A DNA stretch of 64,000 bases from a virus (IMGVR_UViG_3300034065_000151:32001-96000), one strand, 5' to 3'; counted from the first letter of the stretch, positions 22,049-59,380 are shown. Made by a program: numbers and translations. Notes: generated by a model not told the origin, from the letters alone.

Positions 22049-22050
22049 TA

Positions 22051-24584: not shown

Positions 24585-24585
24585 C

Positions 24586-26574: not shown

Positions 26575-27321
26575 TTATCCGGTAATTGTGGTATTGCCAA
26601 AACTGAAACCTGGTGCAAACGGAATTGATTGTCCATTCTCATCAAACTCATTAAACTGTAATCCAGCTGTATCACCCATCCTGATTGTGATTGATCTGAC
26701 AATTTCATTTTTAATATCCATTGGGGCAGATATATAAATTGGTATCTCAAATGCTAAGGACCATAAAATAATTCTACGATCGCCACCAGGAGGATAGTTT
26801 TCTTCATTTGTCATCCCGGTTAATTCAACTGTAGTAATCTTTGTCCAATCAAAAGCCACATCATTAATCTGTATCTGTAATACTGGATCAAACATCATCA
26901 TCAATTGTTCTAATATCTGATGCATTTGCTGTTGATTAGAAGCATATATCGATAACTCACAATTCATAATATATGGAATCGGCATTACTCTTTCAGCAAC
27001 TCTTAAATCATCAGGGAATACTCCACCTTCAGGTAAGTAAGTTTTACGATCTATTACACCAATACCTTTTCTATGTGGAGCCATATTAAGACCTGTCATA
27101 GATAAAGCCATTTGTGGTAATGAGAAAGGTTTATTCTGGGTATTACCAGCACCAATAGCAGCAACCACTCGGTCACGACTACCAAGACTAATTGGTACGG
27201 TCATCATTTCTGCTTCACCACAAGTACCTTTACCTGTTTGAACTTGTAAACCTGCAAAGACATTTGCTACTTGTAATAAGTATTTTCTGATTTGACCATC
27301 ATAATAATAAAAATTAATCAT
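26575..27321 (-). CDS. gp15: Tail terminator / sheath stabiliser
   Basis: YYYDGQIRKY, VPISLG, MPIPY, QILEQLMMMFDP; start MINFY (ATGA overlap). Confidence 0.82.
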   Translation of the reverse strand: MINFYYYDGQIRKYLLQVANVFAGLQVQTGKGTCGEAEMMTVPISLGSRDRVVAAIGAGNTQNKPFSLPQMALSMTGLNMAPHRKGIGVIDRKTYLPEGGVFPDDLRVAERVMPIPYIMNCELSIYASNQQQMHQILEQLMMMFDPVLQIQINDVAFDWTKITTVELTGMTNEENYPPGGDRRIILWSLAFEIPIYISAPMDIKNEIVRSITIRMGDTAGLQFNEFDENGQSIPFAPGFSFGNTTITG

Positions 27322-29228: not shown

Positions 29229-30115
29229 TCGTCACTTTCTTCATAATCTTTCGGATCATGTTTTACATACCATTGCTTTGGGATATATTCTTTTACAAAT
29301 TCTTCTAGGGCATCATTTTGTGCCATACGACGAAGAAGTCCTTCAAATCTCAAAAAGGCACATTTACCTTGTACCCAGATTTCATTATCGTGACCACCAA
29401 ATGAAGCAGAACCTGAAACAACATGACTAAAACCGTTCTTGGTAGGATCCATTCCATTTTCAAAAAGATCATATAGTGTTCTAAACCCATGAGTTTTAAA
29501 TGCTTGAAGGTATTTTTTCCATTCTTCACGTTTACCGGTTTCAGTATTTAAATCATCTATTAATTCAAAGGTAACTCTTTTTAAACAGCTACATAAAGCT
29601 GCATAGTTTTTATGAGCCATATTATATTCAGACAAATGCTCACGCTTATTTGCGGCCATAATAAGGTCTTGAACATCAGACATAAAACCATCCATACTTC
29701 TACCGGTCATGCGATCGATATAATCAAAGCCATACCATAAATCATCACCAGCAATGATACCAATTTCTGAACCATCTGCTGGAATAATTAAATGGACATT
29801 ACCAAAACCACCTGCCATATCATTGTTAGTACTACAAATATAAGACTTAGAACGTTTCGGATAATCTTTCCATGCAGGATTGTTATCCATCCAAATTGTG
29901 TAATAGTTTACAGTATTGGCGGATTCCCGATTTAAACTGTTAGTATCAAAAACCCCCATTTTTATGCTCATTGGCATACCACGAAATATAGGACTCTTTT
30001 TAATCTGTGGTAGATATTTTGAGGCATTAGTTTCACACCACTTCACAAACAGATCGGGTTCCATCTCGGTGTGGGCAAACTGGTCTTCATTTAAAAATTG
30101 TTTGAATGTTATCAT
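29225..30115 (-). CDS. Putative R-S-E ADP-ribosyltransferase, subfamily A, capsid-targeting leader
   Basis: MITFKQFLNE; IFRG...PKRSKSYICST..AGGFG...DNEIWV. Confidence 0.6.
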   Translation of the reverse strand: MITFKQFLNEDQFAHTEMEPDLFVKWCETNASKYLPQIKKSPIFRGMPMSIKMGVFDTNSLNRESANTVNYYTIWMDNNPAWKDYPKRSKSYICSTNNDMAGGFGNVHLIIPADGSEIGIIAGDDLWYGFDYIDRMTGRSMDGFMSDVQDLIMAANKREHLSEYNMAHKNYAALCSCLKRVTFELIDDLNTETGKREEWKKYLQAFKTHGFRTLYDLFENGMDPTKNGFSHVVSGSASFGGHDNEIWVQGKCAFLRFEGLLRRMAQNDALEEFVKEYIPKQWYVKHDPKDYEESDE

Positions 30116-30957
30116 TATCTATCCAACATGTATTTAGTCATAAAATCTTCGAGTACTTCATTGTCACTTTCTTCAAGGCCATCTTCACTATATTTAAGGA
30201 TGCCACAAGTACCTTGAATCCATACTTCTTTGCTAGGACCTGGATTTTTATAGGTTGCTCCAGTTTCAACATCAAAGCCATTTTGTAATGGGTTGAAACC
30301 TAACTGCATTAAATCAAATAAGTTGTCACAGCCACTACGTTCAAAAGCAAGTAAGAAGTGTTCAAAATCTTTTTTTCTTGTTAGGTTTTTGGTAAGGTTT
30401 TTTAATGTTACTTTTTTCAAACACTTAACCAATGCTTTATAATCCATTTGAGCATTTTTAAATTCTTCTGTTTCTTCACTATCTAATTTCATTACCAGAT
30501 GAATCCAGCTATTAAAATTATCAAGGGTGGAATAGTTACCCATACCCATTTTCTTAAACAAGTATTTAAAGGACATCCACAAATCATATTCTGGACAGAT
30601 ACCAATCTTGGCATTATCAGCAGGGATAATTAAAAACGTATTATCATTACCATAGCTACTAGCAGTAGTTAAATTGGTAGAACAGATAAAAGACTTAGAA
30701 CGCTTCGGATACTCTTTCCAAGCTGGATTGTTATCAATCCAAATTGTGTAATAATTTAAAGAGTTAGCAGACTTACGGTTTAAACCATTAGTATCTGAAA
30801 TTCCCACTTTGGTTTCACCAGGCATACCACGATAGATATGTTTGTCCTTAGCACCATTTAAATAGGCACTAGCATTAGTTTCACACCACTTAACAAACTC
30901 TTCTGGTGAAACATCTCTAGTAATATCTCCATTAATAAACTGTTTAAATGATATCAT
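30115..30957 (-). CDS. Putative R-S-E ADP-ribosyltransferase, subfamily A
   Basis: MISFKQFING (E>G); IYRG...PKRSKSFICST..ASSYG...SKEVWI. Confidence 0.6.
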   Translation of the reverse strand: MISFKQFINGDITRDVSPEEFVKWCETNASAYLNGAKDKHIYRGMPGETKVGISDTNGLNRKSANSLNYYTIWIDNNPAWKEYPKRSKSFICSTNLTTASSYGNDNTFLIIPADNAKIGICPEYDLWMSFKYLFKKMGMGNYSTLDNFNSWIHLVMKLDSEETEEFKNAQMDYKALVKCLKKVTLKNLTKNLTRKKDFEHFLLAFERSGCDNLFDLMQLGFNPLQNGFDVETGATYKNPGPSKEVWIQGTCGILKYSEDGLEESDNEVLEDFMTKYMLDR

Positions 30958-31898
30958 TTAAAACTCACATGATCAAAGTGTTTCTTTAGGAATTCATTAA
31001 TAACATCATGTTGTTTAATTATCTTGCCACCCATTGGATTTTCTTCTTCATCTTCTTCAGTCTCATCATTTTCATCTTCACTCTCAATTTTAAGAATGGC
31101 ACAATTTCCCTGAATCCAAACCTCTTGATTTGTTGGGGGTGGACGATATCCATGACCAGTATAAACTTTAAACTTGTTTACTTTTGGATCAAAGCCTTTC
31201 TGGAATACTTCATACATACTTGTGTAGCCATATTTTTCAAAGACTTTAACAGCATCCATAAATCCGCCTTTTGTTTTTTGATTGGCTTCTTTAAGTGACT
31301 CTAAAGTAACTCGCTTTAAACAACTACATAAGGCGGCATAATCATTTTCTATGTTCTTATAATCTGGATCATTCTCACCTAATACTGCTTCAAACATTTT
31401 TTGAAAATCATTCATATATTCTTCTAATGTTCCACGATATTTTGGATCAGCATCAAATATTTTATCCAACTGTTTAAAGCCATACCATAAATCTATCTCA
31501 GGACATACACCCATTTTGGCATCATCTGCCGGGATAATTAAAAAAGTACTTCCATAACCCATCTCGGAAGCACTATTAAAAGAAGTAGCACAACATAAGG
31601 ATTTGGAACGCTTTGGATAATTTTTCCATTCAGGATTATTATCCATCCAAATAGTATAGTAGTTATAAGTGTTCAATGATTTACGGTTCAATTTGTTAGT
31701 ATCACAAAGACCAATCTTAATATCTTCTGGCATACCACGAAAAAGCATTTTATCTTTGGAACCCTTAAGATAATGAGTAGCATTGGTCTCGCACCATTTT
31801 ACAAAGGCTTCAGGGCTTATAGATTGTGTAACCCCTTTAGCTGGGCCATATCTACTTGCTGATATGTCTTCATTTAAGAACTGTTTAAATGTTATCAT
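30954..31898 (-). CDS. Putative R-S-E ADP-ribosyltransferase, subfamily A, capsid-targeting leader
   Basis: MITFKQFLNE; LFRG...PKRSKSLCCATS...NQEVWI. Confidence 0.6.
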   Translation of the reverse strand: MITFKQFLNEDISASRYGPAKGVTQSISPEAFVKWCETNATHYLKGSKDKMLFRGMPEDIKIGLCDTNKLNRKSLNTYNYYTIWMDNNPEWKNYPKRSKSLCCATSFNSASEMGYGSTFLIIPADDAKMGVCPEIDLWYGFKQLDKIFDADPKYRGTLEEYMNDFQKMFEAVLGENDPDYKNIENDYAALCSCLKRVTLESLKEANQKTKGGFMDAVKVFEKYGYTSMYEVFQKGFDPKVNKFKVYTGHGYRPPPTNQEVWIQGNCAILKIESEDENDETEEDEEENPMGGKIIKQHDVINEFLKKHFDHVSFK

Positions 31899-36430: not shown

Positions 36431-37669
36431 TTAAACGAATGAAAGATTGGCAACACTTATGCGACCATAATAATCTGCCGAATTGCCTAAAGATGTGCTA
36501 GTTGAGGTAAATGTTGCTTTACCATATCTAGTCATCAATGAAACATGTGGATTGAATGTGTTAGGATCAACAACAACACCACTTGACATGATAGGGATAT
36601 ATGGGCAGTAGAAATAACCTGTATCCATTTCACCTGAACCGCCTTTGAAACCCATAAGGATTGGTTCTGTACCTTGATCAAAGTAGATATAGCTGTAAAC
36701 CTTGATACCACCATTTAATGTACCAACTAATTTGGTGTTGTTTGGACCATCGAATGAACCAGAAACAGCTGGAGCAAATACTGATTTAGATGCTGACTGC
36801 AATACTGATACAACAAGTGGTGAAACTACAATCCAATTACCTGGACCACGACGGGTTTTACGAGCGATTTCGTTAGCTACTTTGTTGATCAATACACCTA
36901 AAACAGCGTGACGATCACCAACATAGTTTGGAACACCAGTAAATGTACCTGACATATCGAATGATTCTGTAGTACCAGCTAAGGCGATAAGATCATTGAT
37001 AATTTCATTGTCGATTTCTGAAACAACAGCTGCTGAAAGTGATGCAGTGATTTCAGCTTCAAGGTCAAGACCGTGAGATGCTTTGATATCTTGCATTGCT
37101 TCAGGAGTCCAACGTGCTTGTAACTTACGTGAACCGGCTGTAACAGTTTGTTTTAATACTTCAAGAGTTAATGCACGACCACCGAATGCTTCATAGTCAG
37201 ATGTATTAGCTGCAATACCTGTTGAGGTACCTGCTGCTGGTCCACCTGCTGCTGCTGGAGCATCAGAAGTTGAGTAGAAACGCTTCATTTTTGAGTTGTT
37301 ACCGAATACTTCATCACCTGGGTTGATGTCTTCAGCTGTACCAGTATCGATAGTGCCTGGAAGGGCAGTAGTGGTTACGGCTTCTGAGAACAAGAAACGA
37401 AGTGAGTATACCAAACCAACAGGACCGGCCATAGGCTGAACACCAACAAGTTCAGTAGCGATGGTACCTGGGATGATACGTCGAATCATCGGGATAACGA
37501 TTTTCTGGAAGTTACCGATTGCGCCAGCTGATGAAGTTCCAGCAGGTGAGGTTTCTTGCAAATGTTGCATTTGATTATCTAGGACTGGTCCCAAGATACG
37601 TTTTTTACTTTCACTAAGACCATCGAGAAGGGTCTCTTTGGTTTCGTTCCAATTTTCATATAGTTCCAT
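36431..37669 (-). CDS. gp23: Major capsid protein
   Basis: IPMIRR..P..IATELVGVQPM.GP, A.SRKL.ARWT.E..QD, FYCPYIP, MTRYG; start MELYENW with AGGAG. Confidence 0.97.
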   Translation of the reverse strand: MELYENWNETKETLLDGLSESKKRILGPVLDNQMQHLQETSPAGTSSAGAIGNFQKIVIPMIRRIIPGTIATELVGVQPMAGPVGLVYSLRFLFSEAVTTTALPGTIDTGTAEDINPGDEVFGNNSKMKRFYSTSDAPAAAGGPAAGTSTGIAANTSDYEAFGGRALTLEVLKQTVTAGSRKLQARWTPEAMQDIKASHGLDLEAEITASLSAAVVSEIDNEIINDLIALAGTTESFDMSGTFTGVPNYVGDRHAVLGVLINKVANEIARKTRRGPGNWIVVSPLVVSVLQSASKSVFAPAVSGSFDGPNNTKLVGTLNGGIKVYSYIYFDQGTEPILMGFKGGSGEMDTGYFYCPYIPIMSSGVVVDPNTFNPHVSLMTRYGKATFTSTSTSLGNSADYYGRISVANLSFV

Positions 37670-37685
37670 TGAATTCTCCTGTGGA

Positions 37686-38558
37686 CTAGTTACTTGAAAT
37701 GCCCGCAAGCTTTCTTAATTCAGAATGCTTATCGCTTGAGGCTACTTTTGCTGGCTCTGTACTGTTAGGCACGTCACCGGTTACTACAACTGACTCGATG
37801 ATTTGAGCAGGCTTGTTATCTGTATTATCTTCACGGAGAACACGGGCGATAAAATGACCGTATGCTTCTTCAAGGCGGGAAGTTTCAACATTGGCTAATA
37901 CGAATGCCATTTGTTCTTTTTTCTTACCATTGAGTGATGAAAGAATTTTTTCCATCTTTGCTTCACGAACCATCTTAGACTGGGCTTCTTCAAGCTGTCC
38001 GATAGCTTTTTCTGCATCACTTAACTTAGCGAGTGTAGCGGATAATTTAGATTGAACTGAATTCTCGTCGACATAAGATGTAGCGAAGGTTGTTGCGTAT
38101 GCTTCAAAAATCTTACGACCGAATTCGTTTTGTTTAACGATTTCTAAATCTTCATGAAGTTCAGCCATTTCTTCGGTAAGACGGAGCTCAAAGAAAGCAT
38201 CCATTTTGTCGATTAATTGGTCAAGTTCTTCTGAAAGAGTATCAGCCATTGCGTGTTTTTCTTCTACAATCTTTTCTGCATATTCTGCTTCAAGATCACG
38301 GAAACGCTCAATGTCTGCTTTGAGTTCTGCAACTTCTTCATCTAATTTCTTTGCAACGAAAGCTTCAACATTTTCAATCAATGTATCACGTTCATTCGCC
38401 CACTGTTCAGCAATCTCAGCTCGCACTGTCATGGTAACTTCTTCACGAACAACAGATTTATATTGTTCTACTGATTCAGTCCATTGAGTGGAGATTTCCG
38501 CTTTTGCATCTTCGCTTAATAGCTCTGAGCTTAGCAACTTCTGAAGGATTTCATCCAT
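37686..38558 (-). CDS. gp22: Prohead core scaffold protein
   Basis: Acidic coiled coil, FGRKIFEAY; directly upstream of capsid gene. Confidence 0.85.
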   Translation of the reverse strand: MDEILQKLLSSELLSEDAKAEISTQWTESVEQYKSVVREEVTMTVRAEIAEQWANERDTLIENVEAFVAKKLDEEVAELKADIERFRDLEAEYAEKIVEEKHAMADTLSEELDQLIDKMDAFFELRLTEEMAELHEDLEIVKQNEFGRKIFEAYATTFATSYVDENSVQSKLSATLAKLSDAEKAIGQLEEAQSKMVREAKMEKILSSLNGKKKEQMAFVLANVETSRLEEAYGHFIARVLREDNTDNKPAQIIESVVVTGDVPNSTEPAKVASSDKHSELRKLAGISSN

Positions 38559-41510: not shown

Positions 41511-42125
41511 TTATTTCTTAGTAATTGATTCGATAAATTTACGAACTTCAGCGGCGAAATACTTCTGTGCTTTTGGATCATTCTGAACTGCTTCTGCTAA
41601 TGTCAAAATACGAGTATGTTCTTTTGCTTCACGAACTGCATCTGGATAGCAACCAGGACCTGAAGGTTGTGATACAATATCCAAAGCGATAAAACTAAAG
41701 TCTTCAACGATACCATCATTGTTAACATTACCAGTACCACGTGATGAAACACCAAGCTTCATACCACCTTCGATTAATTGCTGAACAATCAAACCAGATG
41801 GTGTATTGAAGATTTTACATTTACCAACAGCATTATTACCATCCATCCAAGCTTCAGTAATAATGTGAGAAACGTTCTTAAGATCAACTGATAAATTGTC
41901 TGGGTGATTCAACTCACCAGGACATGAAATACCTTCTTTAATCTGTTGATTGATATGAGCAACCGCATTAGCGATTTCTTTTAAAGGGTACTTACGTTTA
42001 TTCAGATTTTCTTGTTCTGCCGCCATCATGCGACCAGAAAGATATAGGTTCTTACCTGAATCATGTGACTCTACAAGTTGAGCTTGTGCAGGAGTATAAT
42101 GTTCAATAAGCAATTGTGATTTCAT
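41511..42125 (-). CDS. gp21: Prohead protease
   Basis: NLNKRKYP, GELNHP, VSH, TPSG, LGVSSRGTG, LDIVSQPS. Confidence 0.95.
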   Translation of the reverse strand: MKSQLLIEHYTPAQAQLVESHDSGKNLYLSGRMMAAEQENLNKRKYPLKEIANAVAHINQQIKEGISCPGELNHPDNLSVDLKNVSHIITEAWMDGNNAVGKCKIFNTPSGLIVQQLIEGGMKLGVSSRGTGNVNNDGIVEDFSFIALDIVSQPSGPGCYPDAVREAKEHTRILTLAEAVQNDPKAQKYFAAEVRKFIESITKK

Positions 42126-42270: not shown

Positions 42271-43908
42271 TTAGGCTTCTTCCGGAGCTGGTGTTGCTGG
42301 TGCTTTTTCTTCAGGTGAGGCCTCTTCTGGCTCTTCTTCTGCTCCAGCTGCTTCTGGTGGTTCTTCACCACCAGCAGGTCCTACTGTTTCCTTCTTGGTT
42401 TCCACATTTGGATCATAGAACTGACGGATTTCGTCAACTGATAAACCATCTTGGATACCACGTTCTTGTTTCAATAAGGCTTCATTCATCTGGATATCAT
42501 CTTTAGTCAAACCTAAATAACGTTCCATCATGAATCGTTTAGACAAATATGGTGTATCTTCGACAGCTTTAAATGATGCAATAAGTTCAGTATCCAATGC
42601 AGCCTGACGATACAAGGCAAAGTTCTGTGGTTCAGCAAGTGTAAGTTTGAATAGATCAGGATCAATATTGATACCTGTCACTTTAAGATATGCCTTGAAG
42701 TGCTCATCAAAGACTTCCTGGATACATGATTGCAATCTGATAACAAAGTTAGCAAAAATACGTTCTTCCATATATGCCACACCAGTCTTACCATCGTTAT
42801 ATGCAGAACCTGGATTAGTTGCATCCTGTCCTTTCATGTATGATGAAGGAACACGTAAAGCACGGAAAACTTTGTTAAGGAAATAATCTAATTCTGGGAT
42901 TTCCCAGGTAGTACCACCAGGTAAAGTTTCAACACGCGAACTTCTACCTGCTGCAGTTACTGGAAGGAATATATCTTCACCGATCGATTCAGCATTGTAT
43001 TGAGAATCTGTTTGGTTTTGATTAGCAGTGTTTGGCATACGCTTTTGACGCAAGTCGTTACGGATGGTTTCCAAATGCTGTTTAACACGATGTGGTGCCA
43101 TATTACCAACATCGATATAAAATACACGACGTTCTGGGGCACGAACAATACGATAGATAATCGCAGAGTCTTCCAACATGGTTAACTTTTGGTAATCTTT
43201 AAAAGCTGACTGTAATATGGAAAGACCAAATGGTGCAGTATCACTCATATCATCAGATAGAGTAAAGTGTAGCATCGCAATAGCTGGGGTAATTTCAACT
43301 GAATCAGAAGCTGATGCAGTTGCTGAACCTGGTTTCATTGCCTTAACAGAATCCATGAAACTTGATGGACGGATATGGTAAGCAACCTTTTCACCTTGGG
43401 CATTAATTTCAACACCAATTACTCGGGTTGGATCTACATATTCCCATTGTTCAGTATCAGAAGTCTTGCGAAAAAAGCAATCACCATACTTAACCATTTG
43501 ACGGGCAGTATTGTAAACACGTTTGTTAAGTTTGTGGAATCTTGACCAGTGGCGAAGTGCTGCTCTTAAGGTAGTAACAGTGGTATCAGGAATTTCTTGA
43601 TTTTCTTCGGTTTGATAATCAATGATAAATGGTAGGCTTGTACGTTTATCAGGATTTGAAATTTCTTCAGCAATAATATCAAGGGCACGTGAGATATCAC
43701 CAATGTCCATGGCATCATATTGTTTATAGCGTTGAAGACGGGCAGTAGCACCTTTTAATAGATTTGAAAACCAAGCAACAGTAGAGAATGATGAATACCC
43801 TGCTGAGTTGATATTCATACCATCATCCATGTTAATGGTAGGTTGTGAATACGCTGTCTTACGAGATGCTGGAGTTATAATTTTCCAGTAATTTTCCCAT
43901 TGAGCCAT
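42271..43908 (-). CDS. gp20: Portal protein
   Basis: LEDSAIIYRIVRAPERRVFYIDVGNM, EDIFLP, VETLPGG, ALRVPSS. Confidence 0.97.
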   Translation of the reverse strand: MAQWENYWKIITPASRKTAYSQPTINMDDGMNINSAGYSSFSTVAWFSNLLKGATARLQRYKQYDAMDIGDISRALDIIAEEISNPDKRTSLPFIIDYQTEENQEIPDTTVTTLRAALRHWSRFHKLNKRVYNTARQMVKYGDCFFRKTSDTEQWEYVDPTRVIGVEINAQGEKVAYHIRPSSFMDSVKAMKPGSATASASDSVEITPAIAMLHFTLSDDMSDTAPFGLSILQSAFKDYQKLTMLEDSAIIYRIVRAPERRVFYIDVGNMAPHRVKQHLETIRNDLRQKRMPNTANQNQTDSQYNAESIGEDIFLPVTAAGRSSRVETLPGGTTWEIPELDYFLNKVFRALRVPSSYMKGQDATNPGSAYNDGKTGVAYMEERIFANFVIRLQSCIQEVFDEHFKAYLKVTGINIDPDLFKLTLAEPQNFALYRQAALDTELIASFKAVEDTPYLSKRFMMERYLGLTKDDIQMNEALLKQERGIQDGLSVDEIRQFYDPNVETKKETVGPAGGEEPPEAAGAEEEPEEASPEEKAPATPAPEEA

Positions 43909-50656: not shown

Positions 50657-50919
50657 TATGCATGACCAAGAACAGCTTCAATACCATCACGCTTCATACG
50701 ACGGTATACAGCTTTAGGACATTTTGGATCAAGAGTGACCGAATTGTGAATTTCAATTTGTGGCTGCATTTCTTTATGACCTTTGGCAGTTTTACCTTCT
50801 TTCATAACAGTCACTTTATGCTGGACATAACCGTAACGGGTATAAGCACCTTCAAGCACACCAGTTTTAACTAATTGGCGAACGATAATACGTAATGCTT
50901 TGGCTTTCTTTTGATTCAT
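50656..50919 (-). CDS. Hypothetical basic protein
   Basis: MNQKKAKALR...; coupled ORF. Confidence 0.6.
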   Translation of the reverse strand: MNQKKAKALRIIVRQLVKTGVLEGAYTRYGYVQHKVTVMKEGKTAKGHKEMQPQIEIHNSVTLDPKCPKAVYRRMKRDGIEAVLGHA

Positions 50920-51092
50920 TTTATTTCCTTGGTTGAATTGAGAACTTCTACAAAATTGATTGCTGCTTGTTTTACATCTTCTTCATATGCTCGTTGGGAT
51001 TTTACTGCTGGAACCAAATCACTAACAATTTCCTGAATTTTTTCTTCAGGCAAATTACCAACATCCACATAAAAAATTCTTCGATTACTCAT
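50916..51092 (-). CDS. 58-aa protein carrying the portal clip motif (not in ORF track)
   Basis: MSNRRIFYVDVGNLPEEKIQEIVSDL...; AAGGA RBS; ATGA overlap with next gene. Confidence 0.75.
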   Translation of the reverse strand: MSNRRIFYVDVGNLPEEKIQEIVSDLVPAVKSQRAYEEDVKQAAINFVEVLNSTKEIK

Positions 51093-51101
51093 CTTATTTC
51101 C

Positions 51102-51398
51102 TTAATAATTTAAAATACTATTGGTATTAAAGTACATATTATACAACTCAACTAATACATCACCATGACAAGCATCAGGTTTACACCAACAGCCTAATGT
51201 TAAACCTTTTAATTCTGGTAGAGAATTAAATAATTCAGGAGTATCTAAAATATATTGTCTATACTTTTCGATAACTTCTTTACGAGTTCCATGAACTCCT
51301 ATTATAAATGGATTTCCCCATTTACTTGGTCTCGTAATTATAAAATCGTAGTTGTCCCTTTTGCAGTGGACAACATTAATCTTCTTGTTTTTCTTCAT
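51102..51398 (-). CDS. DUF4326-like protein
   Basis: VVHCK, RPSKWGNPF, LGCWCKP.ACHGDVL. Confidence 0.85.
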   Translation of the reverse strand: MKKNKKINVVHCKRDNYDFIITRPSKWGNPFIIGVHGTRKEVIEKYRQYILDTPELFNSLPELKGLTLGCWCKPDACHGDVLVELYNMYFNTNSILNY

Positions 51399-51801
51399 GT
51401 TTTAAATGGGCACGGTCAATAGCTTCAGCCGCCGCTTGAGGTACATCATTTGGAATCTCTACATAAGCACCAAGTACATATGCACGACCACCTTCAGCCC
51501 ACTCGGGATTTACAATTTGTTTAGGTCCACCCAACCACGAGAATGCATGTGCATTCATGTTGTTATTTGTGGTGACAAACCAATTAATATCACCGAGGTC
51601 ATCACGACCTCGTTTGATAGTTTTTAGAATTTGATATGCTTCTTTTGAAACACCAAGATGTTTTCCCGTATTCATAATAACTTGACCAATACGAGTAGGA
51701 CCATCAAGTGAAGTTGCTACTTCATTTTCAATTGATTTTGTTGCTATTAGGTCTATAATTAAAGAACCTTTATAAGCAGTAATAGTTGCATGAATTGTCA
51801 T
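51376..51801 (-). CDS. Hypothetical protein
   Basis: ORF in packed operon. Confidence 0.6.
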   Translation of the reverse strand: MTIHATITAYKGSLIIDLIATKSIENEVATSLDGPTRIGQVIMNTGKHLGVSKEAYQILKTIKRGRDDLGDINWFVTTNNNMNAHAFSWLGGPKQIVNPEWAEGGRAYVLGAYVEIPNDVPQAAAEAIDRAHLKHEEKQED

Positions 51802-51804
51802 CTT

Positions 51805-52020
51805 TTAATCCTCAGTAAATTCAACAATAGTTTTCCAAGTAATAGGACCACAGCCTTCATATTGGCCCTCAAACTTAGTACCTTCTTTACATACATCAAA
51901 TCGCCATGCTTCATCTTCTTGACCTTCAGTAGCAATCTTACTACGGAAAGCATAAAGACCTGCTTTAGTTACTGTGAATTGACCAATTTCAGATTCACAA
52001 ATCATTGTTAGTTTTGACAT
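51805..52020 (-). CDS. Hypothetical protein
   Basis: First ORF after an extended -10 promoter. Confidence 0.55.
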   Translation of the reverse strand: MSKLTMICESEIGQFTVTKAGLYAFRSKIATEGQEDEAWRFDVCKEGTKFEGQYEGCGPITWKTIVEFTED

Positions 52021-52055
52021 AATTATGTCCCAATAAATTAATATTTCGAACTTTA

Positions 52056-52066
52056 ATTATAACACA
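52056..52066 (-). promoter_or_regulatory. Extended -10 sigma70-like promoter
   Basis: TGTGTTATAAT in intergenic gap. Confidence 0.55.
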
Positions 52067-52072
52067 AAATTG

Positions 52073-52681
52073 TCATAAAATACCAGAATATCTTGGATTT
52101 TTATCACTATCAACATGTTCAATAAGATAACCATTATTTTGTTTGAACAACAATACTTCCCATTTAGAAACACTTGCTGTTCCTAGCTTACCAAGCTTCG
52201 GCCGTAATATAATAAACTTAACTTGTTCCGGTGGAATCATTAGGTTTTCAATATATACTGAATCTGACGCATGTGCAAAATCAATTTTATATAATTTCTT
52301 AGGACTACCATTAGGTATCTGTGTTATTTCAAAGGTACCACTCGGAAATTGTGCAGAGTGATGTGTACTTGGGTTTGGATGAATTAATGCTTTTCTACCT
52401 TTTGTATCAGTAACAAATTTAACTAAGCAATCAATGAAAGCCGTTCGTGCTCTATAACTTATATTTGGGTTTTCCTTACCAAGGGCTGTTTTAATTGTTT
52501 CTTTATCAGGTGGGATGAACATCATCCCTGCTTGTTTGGAAATCCATGGGCCAAGATAATTACTTGCCCGCTGATACATTTCATAGTATCCGGTAATTAT
52601 TTTAAGTAAGTCAGAAAAGTCTGAAGTGTTTCGAGAGATATCATGTTTTGCATTCCATCTATTTTTATTGTCTGTATCCAT
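52073..52681 (-). CDS. Hypothetical protein
   Basis: 202-aa ORF, no motif recognised. Confidence 0.6.
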   Translation of the reverse strand: MDTDNKNRWNAKHDISRNTSDFSDLLKIITGYYEMYQRASNYLGPWISKQAGMMFIPPDKETIKTALGKENPNISYRARTAFIDCLVKFVTDTKGRKALIHPNPSTHHSAQFPSGTFEITQIPNGSPKKLYKIDFAHASDSVYIENLMIPPEQVKFIILRPKLGKLGTASVSKWEVLLFKQNNGYLIEHVDSDKNPRYSGIL

Positions 52682-52710
52682 TATATCATAAGGTTGGGGT
52701 TGGGGGATTA

Positions 52711-53361
52711 CTATTCATCATTTGAATAGTCATGAGGAGTGCACCAAAAGGTTGGGCACTTTAATAGGTCATCGAAATAATGTACCTGGAGAGTTTGTTC
52801 ACAACAACCATCTGATTCAAGATCATAAGTTGTAAGTTCAAATCGTGGAAGAGGAGTCTCTTGCTTTAGATCAGTATAAGCAGTATGACTTTTCTTAACA
52901 ATAACAAATACGGGAGTACGATTCCATTTGAAAATCAACATTGGAAATTTACTTGTTTTTAAAGCATCAACTTCAGATTCTTTAAACCATTTAAAAATGT
53001 TTGCAGTATTTGCAGCAAGAGAAGTAAAACTATCTGAGTCAGCATAACTCTTACATTCAATAGAATGTAAGAAAGTTAAACCGGCTTTTTTTTCATTGAT
53101 TGGTACAACGTCAGCGGTGAATATCTTCATAGCTTCAGCACCAAACATATCACCAAACTTTTCAAAGTTCTTACCACCAACTCGTGCACCAGAACCTGGA
53201 CTACGAATGAAATTCAATGGTGCTAATGCAGCTGATAGCTTTTTAGCAACTTGTCCTTCAAATGAGTTACCTTTGGCTTTACCGCCACCGGGTCTCATTT
53301 TACGTTTTTTAGGGGAAACTGAATCCATGTCAGCATCGCTAATGGTAGATTTTTTAGTCAT
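52711..53361 (-). CDS. Holliday junction resolvase-like PD-(D/E)xK nuclease
   Basis: KGNSFE..VAK.L, RSPGSGA, ADVV, SIECK, PMLIFKWNR; late promoter at 53397-53404. Confidence 0.75.
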   Translation of the reverse strand: MTKKSTISDADMDSVSPKKRKMRPGGGKAKGNSFEGQVAKKLSAALAPLNFIRSPGSGARVGGKNFEKFGDMFGAEAMKIFTADVVPINEKKAGLTFLHSIECKSYADSDSFTSLAANTANIFKWFKESEVDALKTSKFPMLIFKWNRTPVFVIVKKSHTAYTDLKQETPLPRFELTTYDLESDGCCEQTLQVHYFDDLLKCPTFWCTPHDYSNDE

Positions 53362-53404
53362 ATTTTATAGGGAGTAGTTAAAAAGGAATTACCTTTTATT
53401 TATA

Positions 53405-53692
53405 CTATTCCGGGTCCCATACTTTAAACCATGATGTTAAGGGCTTAGTATGATATAAAACAGTTCGTGAAAGGATGACCAATCTGAGTTGACATTTGCC
53501 CTTTTTGACCTCAAATGTCTTATGACAAACATATTTCTGTTTAACTTTAAATGGGAAATTGATGCAAATATACCAACCATTAAGGAATTCTGATTTATAC
53601 TTATCTAACTGGATATTGTCACCATACACAATAAATGCATCTTTACTGAAAGGTTTTCCTTCTAGTCTATCTTGTTCTAATATTAATTTCAT
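53405..53692 (-). CDS. Hypothetical protein
   Basis: Start taken at MKLILEQ (ATGA overlap). Confidence 0.5.
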   Translation of the reverse strand: MKLILEQDRLEGKPFSKDAFIVYGDNIQLDKYKSEFLNGWYICINFPFKVKQKYVCHKTFEVKKGKCQLRLVILSRTVLYHTKPLTSWFKVWDPE

Positions 53693-53949
53693 GGGTTGGA
53701 TAAGGTATAGATACACAAGTTTCTGGCCTGTGTAAGTCGGGTTAAACATTCAAATAATATGCCAGGAGTAACTAAATTGCCACTAGTCATATGACAAAGC
53801 TGTAAAATAGATGATTCAATTTCATTAATTGTTTTCTGATCAGGAATCACCGCTTTAAAATGAGTCTCAATAAAATATATTGGATCATGTATTAAACTAG
53901 CTTGTTGAGATAGGGTTAACTTTGGTGGTGGTATATTATTGTATGTCAT
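53689..53949 (-). CDS. Small protein resembling the terminase N-terminus
   Basis: HDPIYFIETH vs TerL VDPVYFIKNY. Confidence 0.5.
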   Translation of the reverse strand: MTYNNIPPPKLTLSQQASLIHDPIYFIETHFKAVIPDQKTINEIESSILQLCHMTSGNLVTPGILFECLTRLTQARNLCIYTLSNP

Positions 53950-54347
53950 TCAGCATCATCTTCCGGGATAACATTAACACCAAGCAAATTGATATCAGTA
54001 ATTTCTTTTGTACCATTATCTCGCATGTGTACATTACCTGTAGAATAAGAGCGATAAGAAACTGGAACATGACCATTTATTAAGGTTTCTAATATATGTC
54101 CCTGATGTGTATCAGCAACTTTAATTGTACCAATCATGTTACCTCCTTCTAGTTTCAAATCAGAAACAGTAAAGGCTACATCTTTTTGATCTATAGTACA
54201 ACCAATTGAACAACCAATAATTCCAGGCAATGGCTGGTTCTTAGCCTTCCATTCATCAATCGCTTTTTGTAAAGCTTCTGATGAGTAACAATTGCCATTC
54301 CGTGTTGGTACATCAGCTTTTAATATATCAACCTTAAATTCTTCCAT
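53946..54347 (-). CDS. Degenerate (likely inactive) prohead protease paralog
   Basis: Colinear with 41511..42125 over its whole length; His and Asp catalytic positions substituted. Confidence 0.75.
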   Translation of the reverse strand: MEEFKVDILKADVPTRNGNCYSSEALQKAIDEWKAKNQPLPGIIGCSIGCTIDQKDVAFTVSDLKLEGGNMIGTIKVADTHQGHILETLINGHVPVSYRSYSTGNVHMRDNGTKEITDINLLGVNVIPEDDAE

Positions 54348-54348
54348 C

Positions 54349-56319
54349 TCAGTCTCCTAAAATTCGGGAAAAGCCCGATTCCTTTCTAACTACGACCGTT
54401 TTATCAAATCGGCCGACAGCCTCAGGACGATGTGAAATAATCCACATACTCAAATTATCTTCCCGAGTCTTACCCTTCAACAACTTAAATATGTTATTAA
54501 CACCTAATGAATCCAAACCACCATCAATCTCATCAACAAACAAACAGTTCACATGAGAATGTAAATGATGCAATACATCCCTAAATGATAATGACAATGA
54601 AAGATTAACACGTTTCTTTTCACCACTGGAAAGGTTACCGAAATCCAATTCACGACCATACTGTACCACAGTACAGCTCATATCATCATCAAACTTAATA
54701 ACATGAGGTAAACCCAATTCTCTGGTGTAATAAAATAAACGCTTATTCAAGAATGGAATTGTACGGCTAATAATTGTACGACGGATAAATGAATTCTTAT
54801 CAGTTAACAGTTTCAATAGGAATTGCTGATGTTCTATCAGTTTCTTCAATCTATCAAGTTCTGTATAATCAACTATATTTATAGGACTTTTCAACAGTTC
54901 TTCATGGGCTTCAATATGAGGATTAACAAGAACTGGTTGGTTTTTAAGCTGTTCAAGCACCTCAATATATGGATTAACTGGAATAGGCTGATTTTTAAGT
55001 TGTTCAAATACCTCAGTATATGGATTACTTGAATCCTTTAACTCTTTTATTTTGTTTTCAGCAATAACAGCATTAGATTCAGCTTTAAGAACTTCTTCAA
55101 GACTGCCAAATTTCATTACTTCTAATGCTGATTTCTTATCATTCAATAATGTTGCTAGTTCTGCATTTCTAATATTAATTTCATGAATCCATGTATTAAC
55201 ACTTGTTTCTTTATCATGAATAGATTCTTTTAATCCACTTATTTTCTTAGCAGCACCTTCAAATTTCTGTAAACAGTATGGACACTTTTCATCTACTAAA
55301 TGCGATAATTCTTTAGTCAGTTTTTTAATATCTGTTTCTAAAATCAAATTATCTTTTTTTAATCCATTAATCTCATTAGTGAGTCTGGTTTCTTCTGTTT
55401 TAATTCCATTAACTAATACATGAAGTTCCTTTTCTACTTCACTATCAAATGTGGAAATTAAATCATAATCTTTTTGCAATTTAACAAGTTGGGATTGTTT
55501 TTCAGTATCCCATTTGGTGATACGATCTTCTGCTTCCTTAAGCTGTTTAACCGTTTGTTTTTCTGTATCAGTATCCCATTTTTCAATACGATCTTTTGCT
55601 TCTTGAAGCTGATTAGCATATTGATTTACTGTATCATTATCCCATTTAGTAACACGCTCCTCGGCATTTTTAACTTGCTTCTGGAATAAAGCTGATTGAG
55701 ATTCCTGCTCTTTGATAACAGCTTCTTGAATAGCCGCATTACTTTCAGTTGCTTTGATAATAGCTTTCAACTTGATTGCCTTCTCAGACAACAAAGTGAT
55801 ATTAAACAATTCTTCAATCTGTGCACGTTGTTGAGCAACTGGCATCAACAAGAATGGGGTTGAGTCACCGGAGAATACAATGATCTTAGTAAACAGTTCA
55901 TAACTGATACCAATAACTTCAAGGATTAACTTATTGGTTTCTGCAGCACTTGCACAAGTAATATCTTCACCATTCTTAGTGAATGTGATTTCAGTTGATT
56001 CACCACGACTGCGATATATCTCATATGTGTCAATACCCTTATCAAAGAATAAGCGTACTTCCAACATGGTTTTCTTCAGATTATTGGTTGCATTAATCAA
56101 TCGCTGAAGCGATATCTGGCTTAATGGTTTATCATAAACCGCATAGACCAATGTATTAAGAATGGTGGTTTTACCGGAACCATTAGCACCATCATTATCA
56201 AGATTCTCGCCTTGAAGATGGGTAGTACCAGGATCACTTAAATCGATGACTGTGGTTTGATTACCAAAGGATAATACATTGCGGATATGTAGTTCTTTAA
56301 AACGAATTGGAATACTCAT
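54349..56319 (-). CDS. gp46: Recombination ATPase gp46 (Rad50/SbcC-like)
   Basis: NVLSFGN, GANGSGKT, CPYC hook, LSSGEKKR, FVDEIDGGLD, IISH. Confidence 0.95.
   Translation of the reverse strand: MSIPIRFKELHIRNVLSFGNQTTVIDLSDPGTTHLQGENLDNDGANGSGKTTILNTLVYAVYDKPLSQISLQRLINATNNLKKTMLEVRLFFDKGIDTYEIYRSRGESTEITFTKNGEDITCASAAETNKLILEVIGISYELFTKIIVFSGDSTPFLLMPVAQQRAQIEELFNITLLSEKAIKLKAIIKATESNAAIQEAVIKEQESQSALFQKQVKNAEERVTKWDNDTVNQYANQLQEAKDRIEKWDTDTEKQTVKQLKEAEDRITKWDTEKQSQLVKLQKDYDLISTFDSEVEKELHVLVNGIKTEETRLTNEINGLKKDNLILETDIKKLTKELSHLVDEKCPYCLQKFEGAAKKISGLKESIHDKETSVNTWIHEINIRNAELATLLNDKKSALEVMKFGSLEEVLKAESNAVIAENKIKELKDSSNPYTEVFEQLKNQPIPVNPYIEVLEQLKNQPVLVNPHIEAHEELLKSPINIVDYTELDRLKKLIEHQQFLLKLLTDKNSFIRRTIISRTIPFLNKRLFYYTRELGLPHVIKFDDDMSCTVVQYGRELDFGNLSSGEKKRVNLSLSLSFRDVLHHLHSHVNCLFVDEIDGGLDSLGVNNIFKLLKGKTREDNLSMWIISHRPEAVGRFDKTVVVRKESGFSRILGD
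54895..55027 (-). repeat. About 3x 51-bp tandem repeat in gp46 coiled coil
   Basis: NPY.EV.EQLKNQP..V units; GGATTA at 54920, 54971, 55022. Confidence 0.8.
55500..55680 (-). repeat. About 3x 66-bp tandem repeat in gp46 coiled coil
   Basis: QL.EA.DRI.KWD.DT units; TCCCATTT at 55508, 55574, 55640. Confidence 0.8.
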
Positions 56320-56810
56320 AGGAAATAGATTAACTTTGCATTAGTACGGCTGAAATTTATACAGGGAATGAGTGTTTCACGCATCTCATCAAAGGCTTGT
56401 GGACTGAATTGTTTTGAAATAATAAGGTGGTCAACTGTTTTACCACGACCACCATGGGGACGGCTTATTAGAAAAATACGATTACCATTTTCAAATTCAA
56501 TTACATCCTTAGTAAATCTTTTAATTGGGATTCGATATAATTCGGGAATGCTATAAAAAATATCCCTTAACTGATATAAGATATAATCTTTTAAATTGGC
56601 ATTAGAAGAAGGAGTGGCAATGATAACATTTTTATTACTTTGATATAAACAAACCCATAAAGTAAACAACAAAACATCATCAACATCAGCACCATCTATC
56701 AGCTTATCTTCAAAGGTATTACTAAGATCCCTTCCACCATACATAGTTGAAAAGACTTCAAACTTTGTATGACTTTGTAGTTCAATAATTTGTTGTAAAG
56801 TATAGGTCAT
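56316..56810 (-). CDS. Degenerate terminase ATPase-domain paralog 1
   Basis: LLFTLWVCLYQSNKNVIIAT...IEFENGNRI...GGRGKTVDHLII aligns to TerL; no Walker A, no Walker B DE. Confidence 0.75.
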   Translation of the reverse strand: MTYTLQQIIELQSHTKFEVFSTMYGGRDLSNTFEDKLIDGADVDDVLLFTLWVCLYQSNKNVIIATPSSNANLKDYILYQLRDIFYSIPELYRIPIKRFTKDVIEFENGNRIFLISRPHGGRGKTVDHLIISKQFSPQAFDEMRETLIPCINFSRTNAKLIYFL

Positions 56811-57178
56811 GTGAAATATATTGCCCTTCCATTTTTTGGATCCATTGTTAACAAAAGCAATGCCAACTGATTCTTGTATCGTTCTAACTCATCAATAATA
56901 CCCATTGAACAAGCAATCACATTATGCTTTACATTAGCAAATGAATGCATGGTATTGATACCAACAAAACTGAAATTGCATTTGTTGTATAACTCGATAT
57001 TAGCAATTGGATGTGGGTTGTATTGAAAGGGAATACTATTCATGGTTGTTAAGATACCAGATAGTTCAACCGCTTTATCATAAGCAACTATACCCTCTTT
57101 ATAGATGACAAGATACTTTTCATCTGGACTGTTTTGACCAATCCGAATCATTTTATCAAAGAGATAGATTTCTTTCAT
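56807..57178 (-). CDS. Degenerate terminase ATPase-domain paralog 2
   Basis: PDEKYLVI..AVEL..NIELYNKCNFSFV..GIIDEL parallels EDKTIVI..AQEI..RIEFDNGSRII..LYLDEL. Confidence 0.5.
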   Translation of the reverse strand: MKEIYLFDKMIRIGQNSPDEKYLVIYKEGIVAYDKAVELSGILTTMNSIPFQYNPHPIANIELYNKCNFSFVGINTMHSFANVKHNVIACSMGIIDELERYKNQLALLLLTMDPKNGRAIYFT

Positions 57179-58215
57179 AGTGTTTCATAGATTTCTACAA
57201 GAATATCAGGTTCGATAGTTACAGTACGAGTTACACCAGTTTTTAACATAGTAATGACTGCATCATTTAATAAACTTAAATCAAGATCATCAATGGTTTC
57301 ATCACCATTAATTGAGTTCTTTTTCTCTTCAGAATTTTCTTCCAGTGAGAACTCACGGAATGTACCAGCCTTCAGCATTTCATCCTTAAAGGACTGGGCA
57401 TCTGAATAGCTAATATCTGTGTCAATAATACATTGTACCCGACATTTAGGTGGGAATGTTAAGGTTGGATCATTCAACACATCTGAAAGTTTTACCTTAC
57501 GGAATGTTGGACAGCCTTCCCAATTAATAAAATCCACATCTTCTGTTCTGGTATCTAATATTGACATACCACGATTTTCATCCCAAGCATCACCGAAGTT
57601 AGTTGGAAAGGTATTACCAATATAGATTACATTATCATTAGCTTGACGTTTGTGATAGTGACCAGAGAAGATATAAGTTGGGCCTTTAAAGACTTTATGA
57701 TCTGGACCATGTTCCATCATTCTATCGGAACCGGTTACTACAAAGTTCTTGAATTCAAAGTGACCGAATACATATTTAGGCTTATGCTTTTTAATAATAG
57801 CTGCAGCATTACCATATTCTGCATCAAATAAGTATGGGAAGAATATACACTTTTCATTATCAATGTGGTCATTAAGTGGTTCGTCCACTAATCGAACATT
57901 TAAGAATTGAGTGTAATGATAAGTAGAGAATTGGTACCGGTCATTGCGATGATAAAGATCATGATTACCAACCAGAAAATAGATTGGTAAGCCGAGTTTA
58001 TTTAATTTATCTAAGGCATCATAGGAAGCATTTAATGTAGCTACATTAATTGCATTCCTATTTTCAAACCAGTCACCCATGAAAACAATAGTATCACATT
58101 TATTCTTCTTGACCTGAGACATAAACCAGTCTACATATTCCGTGCAGTCTTGGTTATGTTGATCACTATTATTACGACATCCCCAATGGATGTCGGTAAA
58201 CATTGCTATTTTCAT
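57175..58215 (-). CDS. gp47: Recombination nuclease gp47 (Mre11/SbcD-like)
   Basis: FTDIHWG, MGDWFENR, VGNHD, FGHFE, SGHYH. Confidence 0.95.
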   Translation of the reverse strand: MKIAMFTDIHWGCRNNSDQHNQDCTEYVDWFMSQVKKNKCDTIVFMGDWFENRNAINVATLNASYDALDKLNKLGLPIYFLVGNHDLYHRNDRYQFSTYHYTQFLNVRLVDEPLNDHIDNEKCIFFPYLFDAEYGNAAAIIKKHKPKYVFGHFEFKNFVVTGSDRMMEHGPDHKVFKGPTYIFSGHYHKRQANDNVIYIGNTFPTNFGDAWDENRGMSILDTRTEDVDFINWEGCPTFRKVKLSDVLNDPTLTFPPKCRVQCIIDTDISYSDAQSFKDEMLKAGTFREFSLEENSEEKKNSINGDETIDDLDLSLLNDAVITMLKTGVTRTVTIEPDILVEIYETL

Positions 58216-58217: not shown

Positions 58218-58439
58218 TTAACCTTGAACTTTATTCATTGTCCATTTACCATCACGGAAATCACCACGAGGATCATATTGACCTTCGGTACCAAATCCAT
58301 CATTATTACCATGGATATCATTAATCATGAATTCTAAATCCTGTGCAAATTCTTTTGCAAAGTTATTATCTTCATTGGATAATTTAATAAGACGAGTCAA
58401 TACTAATTCAATATTTTTTTGAATTTTTGTTTGCTTCAT
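58218..58439 (-). CDS. Hypothetical protein
   Basis: DGFGTEGQYDPRGD motif; coupled ORF. Confidence 0.6.
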   Translation of the reverse strand: MKQTKIQKNIELVLTRLIKLSNEDNNFAKEFAQDLEFMINDIHGNNDGFGTEGQYDPRGDFRDGKWTMNKVQG

Positions 58440-59380
58440 TACTTTTCCTTTTTGGCTTTTGGCATTTTCAAAATTTTAAGTTCTTTAACAACTTTAGGAG
58501 CTTTGACAGGTTTCTCTTTTTTAACTTTAGGAACCTTTAGCTTTACTACTTTTTCTTTCTTAACCTTAACAGGTTTCTCCACTGCAACTTCACCTTCGGG
58601 CTTTGGTTTACGCTGGAACATAATCCGTTTAGGAGGTGGAGCTTTAACTGGTAATGCGGCGACTTCATCAACCTTACCAACAGCACCTTCTCGGATTGAA
58701 ATAGCACCAGTTTCTGGGTCTATAATTATATCTTCTGCTTTGTATGTGGTAATAGAGCTTGGTGATTTCCCCCGATTCCGTACTCGATCTTCAAATGGAG
58801 TAACTGGACATTGTGTTGGTGCTTTAGGAACATCGACAAGAACACCATCAACTAAGACTTTCTGTTGAAGTAGTTCTTCATCTTCGGCTTCTAAAAGGAA
58901 CTGATTATATACTTCTACATGCTCATCTGATTCTTTAATTTCAAAATGAGATTCATCTTTTTCACCTTGTAAGAAATTGTATGATGGATTTGATCCAGCA
59001 TCAATTAATAACATATCTCTAATATTTCGGTGTTTTTTCTCATCAGCAATACATTGTAAGAACGTATTGTGAATAGCAGATGTGTAGTATGAGAAGGGAT
59101 TTGGTTTATCACTTCTATCAAGATCAAAGTTTAAAGCGTTTTTACATAGATTTTCAACTGCAGTCGAAACCATATCAGCTCTAAAGGTATAATTTACAAA
59201 GTTACCTTTACGTGAATAGCGCTCTGCAATCATCCATATCATGGCGATAAGTTCACTTGTCACTTCATTCAGTTCTTTGGCTTTGATAACTTCTGGTAAT
59301 AATACACCATTCGTTACGTAATGCCCAACTTCACTTGTGGATTTCTCTCTTTTTACTCGTTTTGCTTTAGTTTGAATCAA
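58439..59380 (-). CDS. gp55: Late-transcription sigma factor with Lys-rich C-terminal extension
   Basis: HYVTN, IAERYSRKGNFVNYTFRADM, NFD...NPFSYYT...FLQ.I..EKK; TTG start. Confidence 0.9.
   Translation of the reverse strand: MIQTKAKRVKREKSTSEVGHYVTNGVLLPEVIKAKELNEVTSELIAMIWMIAERYSRKGNFVNYTFRADMVSTAVENLCKNALNFDLDRSDKPNPFSYYTSAIHNTFLQCIADEKKHRNIRDMLLIDAGSNPSYNFLQGEKDESHFEIKESDEHVEVYNQFLLEAEDEELLQQKVLVDGVLVDVPKAPTQCPVTPFEDRVRNRGKSPSSITTYKAEDIIIDPETGAISIREGAVGKVDEVAALPVKAPPPKRIMFQRKPKPEGEVAVEKPVKVKKEKVVKLKVPKVKKEKPVKAPKVVKELKILKMPKAKKEK

Follow-up and report, generated by a model that had tools for sequence, protein, structure and literature searches.

What role do small, catalytically disabled look-alikes of a phage's own head and packaging proteins play when they are encoded among its recombination genes? 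This question is raised by a 64,000-nucleotide stretch of viral DNA (IMGVR_UViG_3300034065_000151:32001-96000; hereafter the window), which corresponds to bases 32001-96000 of a 140,766-bp IMG/VR contig (L039) with a CheckV completeness of about 40% and a GC content of about 35%. The DNA belongs to an uncultured T4-like phage, in which portal, prohead protease, capsid, sheath, a gp55-like late sigma factor, gp47 (Mre11-like) and gp46 (Rad50-like) are present. A first-pass annotation had read five small open reading frames (ORFs) of the window as degenerate copies of parts of the portal, the terminase and the prohead protease, each truncated or lacking catalytic residues, and had proposed them as decoys against host defence or, alternatively, as dominant-negative factors or regulators of packaging. 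The resemblance to packaging proteins was found to hold for three of these ORFs (58, 133 and 164 amino acids), to reach the level of the predicted fold for a fourth (123 amino acids), and to fail for the fifth (86 amino acids); the structural premise of truncation and catalytic loss was borne out for four of the five, which are of the TerL, protease and portal clip types. The safest statement, from sequences and predicted structures, is that head and packaging proteins gave rise to these mini-copies, which are probably inert and act by binding. As for their role, interference with packaging and head maturation by binding is favoured, at a probability of roughly one in three.

The mini-TerL is an ORF of 164 amino acids at 56316..56810 (minus strand, as are all features of the window given below). 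It matches the large terminase subunit (TerL) in PHROG (E 6.5e-8) and the phage's own TerL in a pairwise comparison (E 1e-11). The profile of its family, which has at least 16 members, returned T4 gp17 (2O0H) as the best PDB sequence (E 4e-5), and the score of the ORF against the curated Terminase_6N family was 16.3 bits, below the cut-off of 22. An AlphaFold2 model of high confidence (predicted local distance difference test, pLDDT, 92.3) was generated, for which Foldseek ranks 1-4 were occupied by the T4 gp17 ATPase domain with template modelling (TM) scores of 0.80-0.83, followed by other TerLs; the matched part comprises the N-terminal helices and ATPase subdomain I. The Walker A P-loop (G/SxxxxGKT/S) is missing in 16/16 family members, and so is the DE pair of Walker B, the corresponding segments being LIISKQ, LFVSSG, LLIHRC and similar. 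The N-terminal ATPase piece of the phage's own TerL, the parent type (8985..9869; Terminase_6N 2.6e-15), has SRQSGKT and LYLDE at these places. In the model, strand 1 enters helix 1 through a one-residue turn at the point where the P-loop is deleted. The mini-TerLs stop just short of the C (coupling) motif, present as TSTPNG in the own TerL, and the 164-amino-acid ORF ends at about the equivalent of gp17 residue 284, with the RNase-H-like nuclease domain and the portal-binding subdomain II missing. Because the P-loop, the Walker B DE pair, the catalytic Glu, the C-motif, subdomain II and the nuclease domain are all missing, the 164-amino-acid protein cannot be a packaging ATPase.

The second ORF that had been assigned to the terminase ATPase, of 123 amino acids at 56807..57178 between gp47 and the mini-TerL, gave no sequence match to TerL or the 164-amino-acid ORF when compared by BLASTP and hhalign. 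For its ESM-Atlas model, ten structural neighbours are listed (one entry per family set among the 30 nearest), with TM scores by query of 0.72-0.82; nine of the ten are labelled as terminases and one is an unnamed cluster. A Walker-B-like GIIDE is kept in this ORF and the P-loop is missing. The assignment of two terminase ATPase copies is thus retained for the 164-amino-acid ORF, at the level of both sequence and fold (TM up to 0.83), and for the 123-amino-acid ORF at the level of the predicted fold. The latter was found in the window and in its close relative L007, a 101-kb ENA scaffold, only. A shortened form in the variant L011 was considered as a natural knockout and rejected, being caused by a scaffold gap of N.

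The mini-protease (133 amino acids, 53946..54347) begins 1 nt past the gp46 stop codon. Its match to Peptidase_S77 (E 1.1e-5, 25.4 bits) lies slightly under the cut-off of 27, and it matches the PHROG head maturation protease at 5e-11 and the phage's own protease at a pairwise E of 2e-9; for an identical database protein, the precomputed annotation gives PF03420. An AlphaFold2 model built with nine family members (pLDDT 90.8) was superposed on T4 gp21 (5JBL) over 132 columns with a TM score of 0.84, a root-mean-square deviation of 1.9 Å and an E of 5e-8, and the next fold matches are herpesvirus proteases, that is, a herpesvirus-assemblin-like fold. The column of the catalytic His holds a different residue in all nine mini-proteases (C, C, P, M, D, F, G, T and A), and the catalytic Ser is likewise lost in 9/9, the Ser positions being unconserved. 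The own prohead protease, the parent type (204 amino acids, 41511..42125; Peptidase_S77 3e-26), has GELNHP and VSSRG. It is also about 55 residues longer at the C-terminus, where the mini-protease is missing the targeting tail; in giant phages, the C-terminal tail of the protease has been proposed to direct it into the prohead (PMC5694885). The full-length protease and the mini-protease are the two Peptidase_S77 matches in the genome. The identification of 53946..54347 as an inert prohead protease copy was accordingly upheld by family, fold and active-site comparison.

The ORF of 86 amino acids at 53689..53949, ATGA-coupled to the mini-protease, had been taken for a terminase N-terminus. Its likeness to the own TerL was found to consist of one nine-residue motif only (DPIYFIETH against DPVYFIKNY; pairwise E 0.024), searches of Pfam and PHROG returned zero family matches, and there was zero structural support for TerL. 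This assignment is unsupported and was dropped.

The mini-portal (58 amino acids, 50916..51092) passes the Pfam threshold for Portal_T4 (E 4.5e-6, 26.1 bits against a cut-off of 22.9) at profile positions 205-240 and matches the PHROG portal at 2e-7. Its residues 3-38 align to residues 281-316 of T4 gp20, the clip tip and helix, in agreement with the portal clip identity first given to it; the C-terminal 26 amino acids are unrelated to portal. It spans 36 of the 433 portal profile positions, and the wing, stem, crown and complete clip needed for a dodecamer are missing; the parent type is the own portal at 42271..43908 (Portal_T4 4e-85). The ORF has its own ribosome-binding site and overlaps the following ORF at ATGA. 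In T4 gp20, the clip domain (279-358) is the docking site of the packaging ATPase, and a peptide of residues 288-311 was reported to bind gp17 and to inhibit DNA packaging (PMC4493910). Both this peptide and the gp20 contact residues N291, M292, R295 and K296 fall within the stretch aligned to the mini-portal. In comparison with L007, the tract around the mini-portal is otherwise little diverged, and the overall ratio of nonsynonymous to synonymous substitution rates (dN/dS) of the mini-portal is about 1. Codons 9-32, equivalent to gp20 287-310 (clip tip and helix) and including three of the four T4 contact positions, were found to differ by 13 nonsynonymous and 1 synonymous changes, the remaining 34 codons by 0 and 1. 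Such a cluster would reflect either diversifying selection on an exposed surface or a small replacement patch, uniform decay being excluded by the distribution of the changes.

The mini-TerL and the mini-protease are embedded in a cluster headed by the gp55-like late sigma factor (58439..59380; phrog_234, 8e-26), followed by gp47 (Mre11/SbcD-like phosphoesterase, 57175..58215; Pfam Metallophos 2.8e-12) and gp46 (Rad50/SbcC-like ATPase, 54349..56319; Pfam SMC_N 5e-16, AAA_23). The gp55-gp47-gp46 context named in the first-pass annotation was thereby confirmed by Pfam and PHROG, and its description of the ORFs as intact and translationally coupled was verified: all frames are open, and ATGA overlaps were confirmed for gp47/123, 123/164, 164/gp46, 133/86 and 58/87 (genes or ORF lengths in amino acids).

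Are these ORFs maintained as genes? Synteny and dN/dS in related phages had been proposed as a check, and in the relatives the mini-TerL and mini-protease were found to be kept at fixed positions, with dN/dS values of 0.06-0.24 for three of the ORFs. L007, the reference for all pairwise dN/dS values, contains all five ORFs in the same order. The values are 0.063 for the 123-amino-acid ORF, as constrained as gp46 and gp47 (0.06-0.07), 0.24 for the mini-TerL and 0.20 for the mini-protease; these ratios place the three ORFs under purifying selection. The fast-evolving 86-amino-acid ORF has a dN/dS of 0.64 and is 41% identical to its L007 orthologue. The loci of further relatives were gathered via gp47 plus an exhaustive protein search. 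A mini-TerL of about 160 amino acids lies between gp47 and gp46 in L012, L015, L021, L031, L032 and L033, and a mini-protease lies directly after gp46 in L007, L012, L018, L019, L020, L031 and L032, an ORF of 104 amino acids intervening in L033. Identity among members of the mini-copy families is about 22-30%, while that of gp46 and gp47 of the same relatives is about 50-65%. In other relatives, gp47 and gp46 are adjacent or have unrelated inserts between them. In a gp47 tree, the mini-TerL and mini-protease occur in both ingroup subclades and in 0/3 outgroup loci, which fits a single ancestral gain followed by repeated independent losses. Recent intragenomic duplication was rejected as their origin, identity to the own parents being just 25-27%. 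From these sequence comparisons, the ORFs of 123, 164 and 133 amino acids are real, conserved, old genes.

The relatives also indicate the kind of phage concerned. G001, a complete 358-kb genome with terminal repeats whose gp47 is about 56% identical to that of the window phage, places the latter in a giant-phage clade, and the GC content of relatives sharing the cassette, 54% in G001 as against about 35% in the window phage, implies very different hosts within one clade. Near-identical DNA was found only in peat metagenome DNA runs, possibly the origin of this DNA, and no RNA runs containing the stretch were listed among the sequencing runs matched. The region had no match among cultured phages by megablast or blastn, and tblastn of the mini-copies or their family members against 50,697 phage records returned only genuine terminases and proteases, no cultured phage there carrying mini-copies. 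Two of these matches had been candidates: gp87 of Sphingomonas phage PAU is a real TerL rather than a mini-TerL, and the match in Listeria LPJP1 is likely a real protease rather than a mini-protease. Word-based locus and protein searches with the mini-copies returned one close relative only, and PADLOC and NCBIfam gave zero matches for the mini-copies or the adjoining genes.

Mini-copies of head proteins were also found outside this locus. In a self-comparison of the whole contig, only four pairs of a small ORF and a large protein were detected beyond ordinary paralogue families, with TerL, protease, portal and major capsid protein as the parents. The fourth small ORF (70 amino acids, contig 3641..3853, minus strand), which is located outside the window, scores above the Pfam cut-off for Gp23 (E 2.3e-9, profile 290-325). 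It sits in a row of small coupled ORFs and matches the own capsid protein (window 36431..37708). G001 carries three mini-copies, namely a 63-amino-acid portal-clip ORF, a mini-protease and a 94-amino-acid ORF with the gp23 N-terminal motif, and G002 carries the last two. The portal-clip ORF of G001 (L058:1411-1602, minus strand) is 35% identical to that phage's own portal over 57 amino acids (E 6e-8). It is ATGA-coupled to a ribonucleotide reductase beta-like gene, just downstream of which it was placed by eye, and a glutaredoxin-like ORF comes next; a mimic of this kind thus occurs in a different neighbourhood. The first 45-60 positions of the Gp23 profile are matched by the 94-amino-acid ORF of G001 (L051:1462-1746, minus strand) at E 2.5e-11 and by a frame of about 97 amino acids in G002 (L050) at 1.2e-12; we take the matched region to be the highly conserved N-terminal stretch around the Gol peptide of T4 gp23. 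A Pfam census of 112 small ORFs of the contig recovered the Gp23, Portal_T4 and Peptidase_S77 fragments together with a DNA_pol3_alpha fragment, and the presence of the latter means that head proteins are not the sole source of fragments.

Some further features of the contig concern fragmented or multiplied genes. The DNA_pol3_alpha NTPase match (E 5e-17) is in a small ORF at L039:11872-12414 (minus strand), with stop codons within the match; a second small ORF nearby matches DNA_pol3_finger, and there is no full-length DnaE on the contig. A polymerase gene that is broken or fractured may lie behind these fragments, or they may be another case of a fragment ORF. The own TerL (window 6891..9869) is itself divided: the 294-amino-acid ATPase piece at 8985..9869 ends in an intein-like CLSA... 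start, the 381-amino-acid piece at 6891..8036 has a weak C-terminal Intein_splicing match followed by Terminase_6C, and between them lies a free-standing endonuclease-like ORF of 222 amino acids (8012..8680) with weak DUF7487 and REase_MTES_1575 matches. A fractured gene whose product is joined by trans-splicing through a split intein is suggested by this arrangement. About nine proteins of 214-314 amino acids with shared N-terminal regions form two tandem sets (window 12130..31898 and contig 102112..106407), and a ten-member family of proteins of 84-207 amino acids is also present in the contig.

When would the mini-copies be made? Non-late expression is inferred from the gp55-gp47-gp46 context. 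The extended -10 promoter-like sequence TGTTATAAT (TGnTATAAT), read directly from the DNA at 52056..52064, is present as first noted, in a 52-nt gap upstream of the mini-portal unit, and the whole intergenic stretch is identical in L007. Scans for sigma-70-like promoters and terminators gave counts not above shuffled expectation. T4-type late-promoter-like TATAAATA motifs precede the structural genes of the window, and conserved copies also occur inside gp46 and just upstream of a PDDEXK gene. The copy at 53397..53404, kept at the same place in L007 (13390..13397), immediately precedes this PDDEXK_15 gene (PHROG 'RusA-like resolvase'), which suggests, by analogy with T4 gene 49, that its product is a late-expressed junction-resolving nuclease.

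The explanation favoured here is that the mini-copies are domesticated, catalytically inert paralogues and, for the portal, a peptide mimic, which interfere with packaging and head maturation by binding. Made from the gp55-gp47-gp46 cluster and neighbouring units, they would compete with the real late proteins for partners. The clip tip that the mini-portal would present is the part that contacts TerL, and TerL would be its target; for the mini-TerLs, the target would be one of the proteins that interact with TerL, for instance TerS or TerL itself; and the mini-protease would bind protease substrates or subunits, without cleavage and without entry into the prohead. In this way the phage could hold back its own packaging while concatemers are still being produced by recombination-dependent replication, or it could poison the machinery of relatives infecting the same cell. 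A direct experimental precedent exists only for this explanation, the gp20 288-311 peptide having been reported to bind gp17 and to block packaging (PMC4493910). The explanation also fits the loss from the mini-copies of the parts that place a protein in the prohead or motor: the targeting tail of the protease as well as subdomain II and the nuclease domain of TerL. Some phages are known to encode blockers of the virion assembly of another phage (PMC10884400). The dominant-negative or packaging-regulator alternative of the first-pass annotation is at least as well supported as its decoy proposal. Several points weigh against packaging as the target. Subdomain II of TerL contacts the portal in T4, and since it is missing from the mini-TerLs, the partner proposed for them is a guess. 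A foreign target that changes quickly would account for the hot spot in the clip helix no less well than the own TerL. Late transcription of the ORFs of 133, 86 and 58 amino acids is possible because of the conserved TATAAATA in gp46 and before the PDDEXK gene. In addition, fragments of the most conserved proteins and motifs are the easiest to detect, and the apparent restriction to head proteins may be partly an artefact.

It is possible, though we consider it unlikely, that the mini-copies are instead immune decoys, inert mimics that occupy Avs sensors or the CD-NTase sensors of CBASS without activation or that shield the activation loop from cleavage. The parent proteins are the best-established immune triggers (PMC13581612, PMC12991175), and a dead fold could be bound, since Avs proteins bind monomeric core folds independently of catalysis; however, this binding itself activates Avs, and core-bearing fragments sufficed for cell death (PMC13581612), so that an early fold mimic would by default fire an Avs sensor sooner. 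CBASS, in turn, senses prohead-protease activity through cleavage rather than fold (PMC12991175). Because Avs is activated by core folds and CBASS by cleavage, a decoy would need an extra activation-blocking property. In the work of Gao et al. 2022, Avs3 is reported to contact TerL ATPase and nuclease active-site residues and the bound nucleotide, and these features are missing from the mini-TerL. A precedent for a decoy, the only mechanistic one found in the literature, is DSAD1, a tail-tube mimic by which DSR2 is trapped (PMC10973363); none of the known anti-Avs proteins is a mimic of a trigger, and PADLOC returned no matches. The ratio of 13 nonsynonymous to 1 synonymous change in the clip helix and the patchy presence of the mini-copies among relatives would suit a role in defence evasion, but vertical inheritance at fixed sites across phages of 35% and 54% GC is unlike host-specific anti-defence cargo. 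An anti-CBASS Acb1 homologue in the same genome also counts in favour of decoys. It is an ORF of 152 amino acids (157-amino-acid open frame; L039:18369-18827, minus strand; contig 18375..18803) located about 64 kb from the mini-protease, and its strong match to PF23474 (E 9e-28) indicates that the phage carries a known counter-defence gene. A 'trigger-mimic kit', in which inert look-alikes of TerL, portal clip, capsid and protease would be made early and pre-occupy or shield Avs or CBASS sensors, is regarded as rather more doubtful.

The fixed positions raise a different explanation, namely that the mini-copies have been neofunctionalised, their folds being recruited for a non-head job in which they assist the gp46/gp47 recombination nuclease or the handling of DNA ends. 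The mini-TerL is always found between gp47 and gp46 with ATGA overlaps, even at 22-30% family identity, the mini-protease is fixed after gp46 (behind the 104-amino-acid ORF in L033), and the 123-amino-acid ORF is constrained like gp46 and gp47. Ancestral insertion and vertical inheritance alone explain a fixed position, however, and each mini-copy was lost independently in several lineages that retain gp46 and gp47, while the mini-portal and mini-capsid ORFs are located elsewhere, beside nrd or other genes; such a role is considered improbable. Still less probable is that the ORFs, mainly that of 86 amino acids and also that of 58, are decaying or neutral fragments captured by illegitimate recombination and left open through ORF density. 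In T4-like genomes, the spaces between core genes hold many ORFs subject to turnover, fractured genes and endonucleases are also present in this genome, and the dN/dS values of 0.64 (86 amino acids, at 41% identity) and about 1 overall (58 amino acids) are in line with neutrality. Neutral relics are difficult to reconcile with the dN/dS of 0.06-0.24 of the ORFs of 123, 164 and 133 amino acids, with frames kept intact while gp46 and gp47 diverged to about 50-60% identity, with AlphaFold2 models from 9-16 sequences reaching pLDDT values of 91-92, or with a mini-portal that recurs in G001 and whose changes are clustered rather than uniform.

What would these genes mean for phage biology? In giant T4-like phages, dead paralogues of virion-assembly proteins appear to recur and to be maintained by selection, and not to be debris. 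In the literature on terminase pseudoenzymes, decoys and anti-Avs mimics, no P-loop-less TerL domains or free-standing portal-clip genes were found to be described. The locus offers testable reagents: a P-loop-less TerL family, a complete dead prohead-protease fold and a natural 58-amino-acid version of the portal peptide by which T4 packaging is blocked in vitro. If the mini-copies regulate or poison packaging, as favoured here, they would represent either a new level of control or a weapon used between phages. If what they blind is Avs or CBASS, they would point to a general counter-defence principle, of which DSAD1 is the sole single-protein example so far, and would provide tools for probing binding as against activation.

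How do the mini-copies compare with known systems? The family of the 164-amino-acid ORF has its best profile and fold match in the T4 gp17 ATPase domain (PDB 2O0H, 2O0J, 3CPE), sharing its N-terminal helices and subdomain I and differing in the loss of all the catalytic elements and downstream domains listed above. The mini-portal covers the same exposed, gp17-contacting tip as the T4 gp20 clip and the 288-311 peptide; it differs in being a natural free-standing gene with an unrelated tail of 26 amino acids, and at the contact positions it has NLPEEK where gp20 has NMPARK, these positions varying between close relatives. DSAD1, a small protein of SPbeta-like phages, similarly imitates a virion protein and fills the trigger pocket of DSR2 without activation (PMC10973363). 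It is, however, not a recognisable homologue of the trigger and has one known sensor, whereas the mini-copies are true homologues of four head proteins. The mini-protease has the fold of T4 gp21 (5JBL, Peptidase_S77) and keeps its N-terminal NG-x-Y motif, but the catalytic His and Ser are replaced and the C-terminal extension is missing. Its nearest counterparts in kind are the published 'cryptic' truncated prohead protease paralogues of phiKZ-like giant phages, SPN3US gp117, PhiPA3 gp143 and 201phi2-1 gp206 (PMC5694885). Compared by their description, these are likewise second, diverged protease copies of about 135-145 amino acids, without the targeting region, presumed inactive and encoded outside the head module; their lineage is S80/phiKZ, and in gp117 the catalytic Ser and Asp can still be aligned (PMC5694885). 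The mini-protease, in contrast, is of the T4-type S77 family, has lost His and Ser in 9/9 members, is fixed after gp46, and occurs beside mini-copies of TerL, portal and capsid. Overall, the mini-copies belong with inactive paralogues and mimics of virion proteins, a kind already known, and the mini-protease is the T4-type counterpart of the SPN3US gp117 type; to this kind the locus adds a deeply conserved gp47/mini-TerL/gp46/mini-protease cassette, a defined mini-TerL family, high-confidence models and a hot spot of change in a clip mimic.

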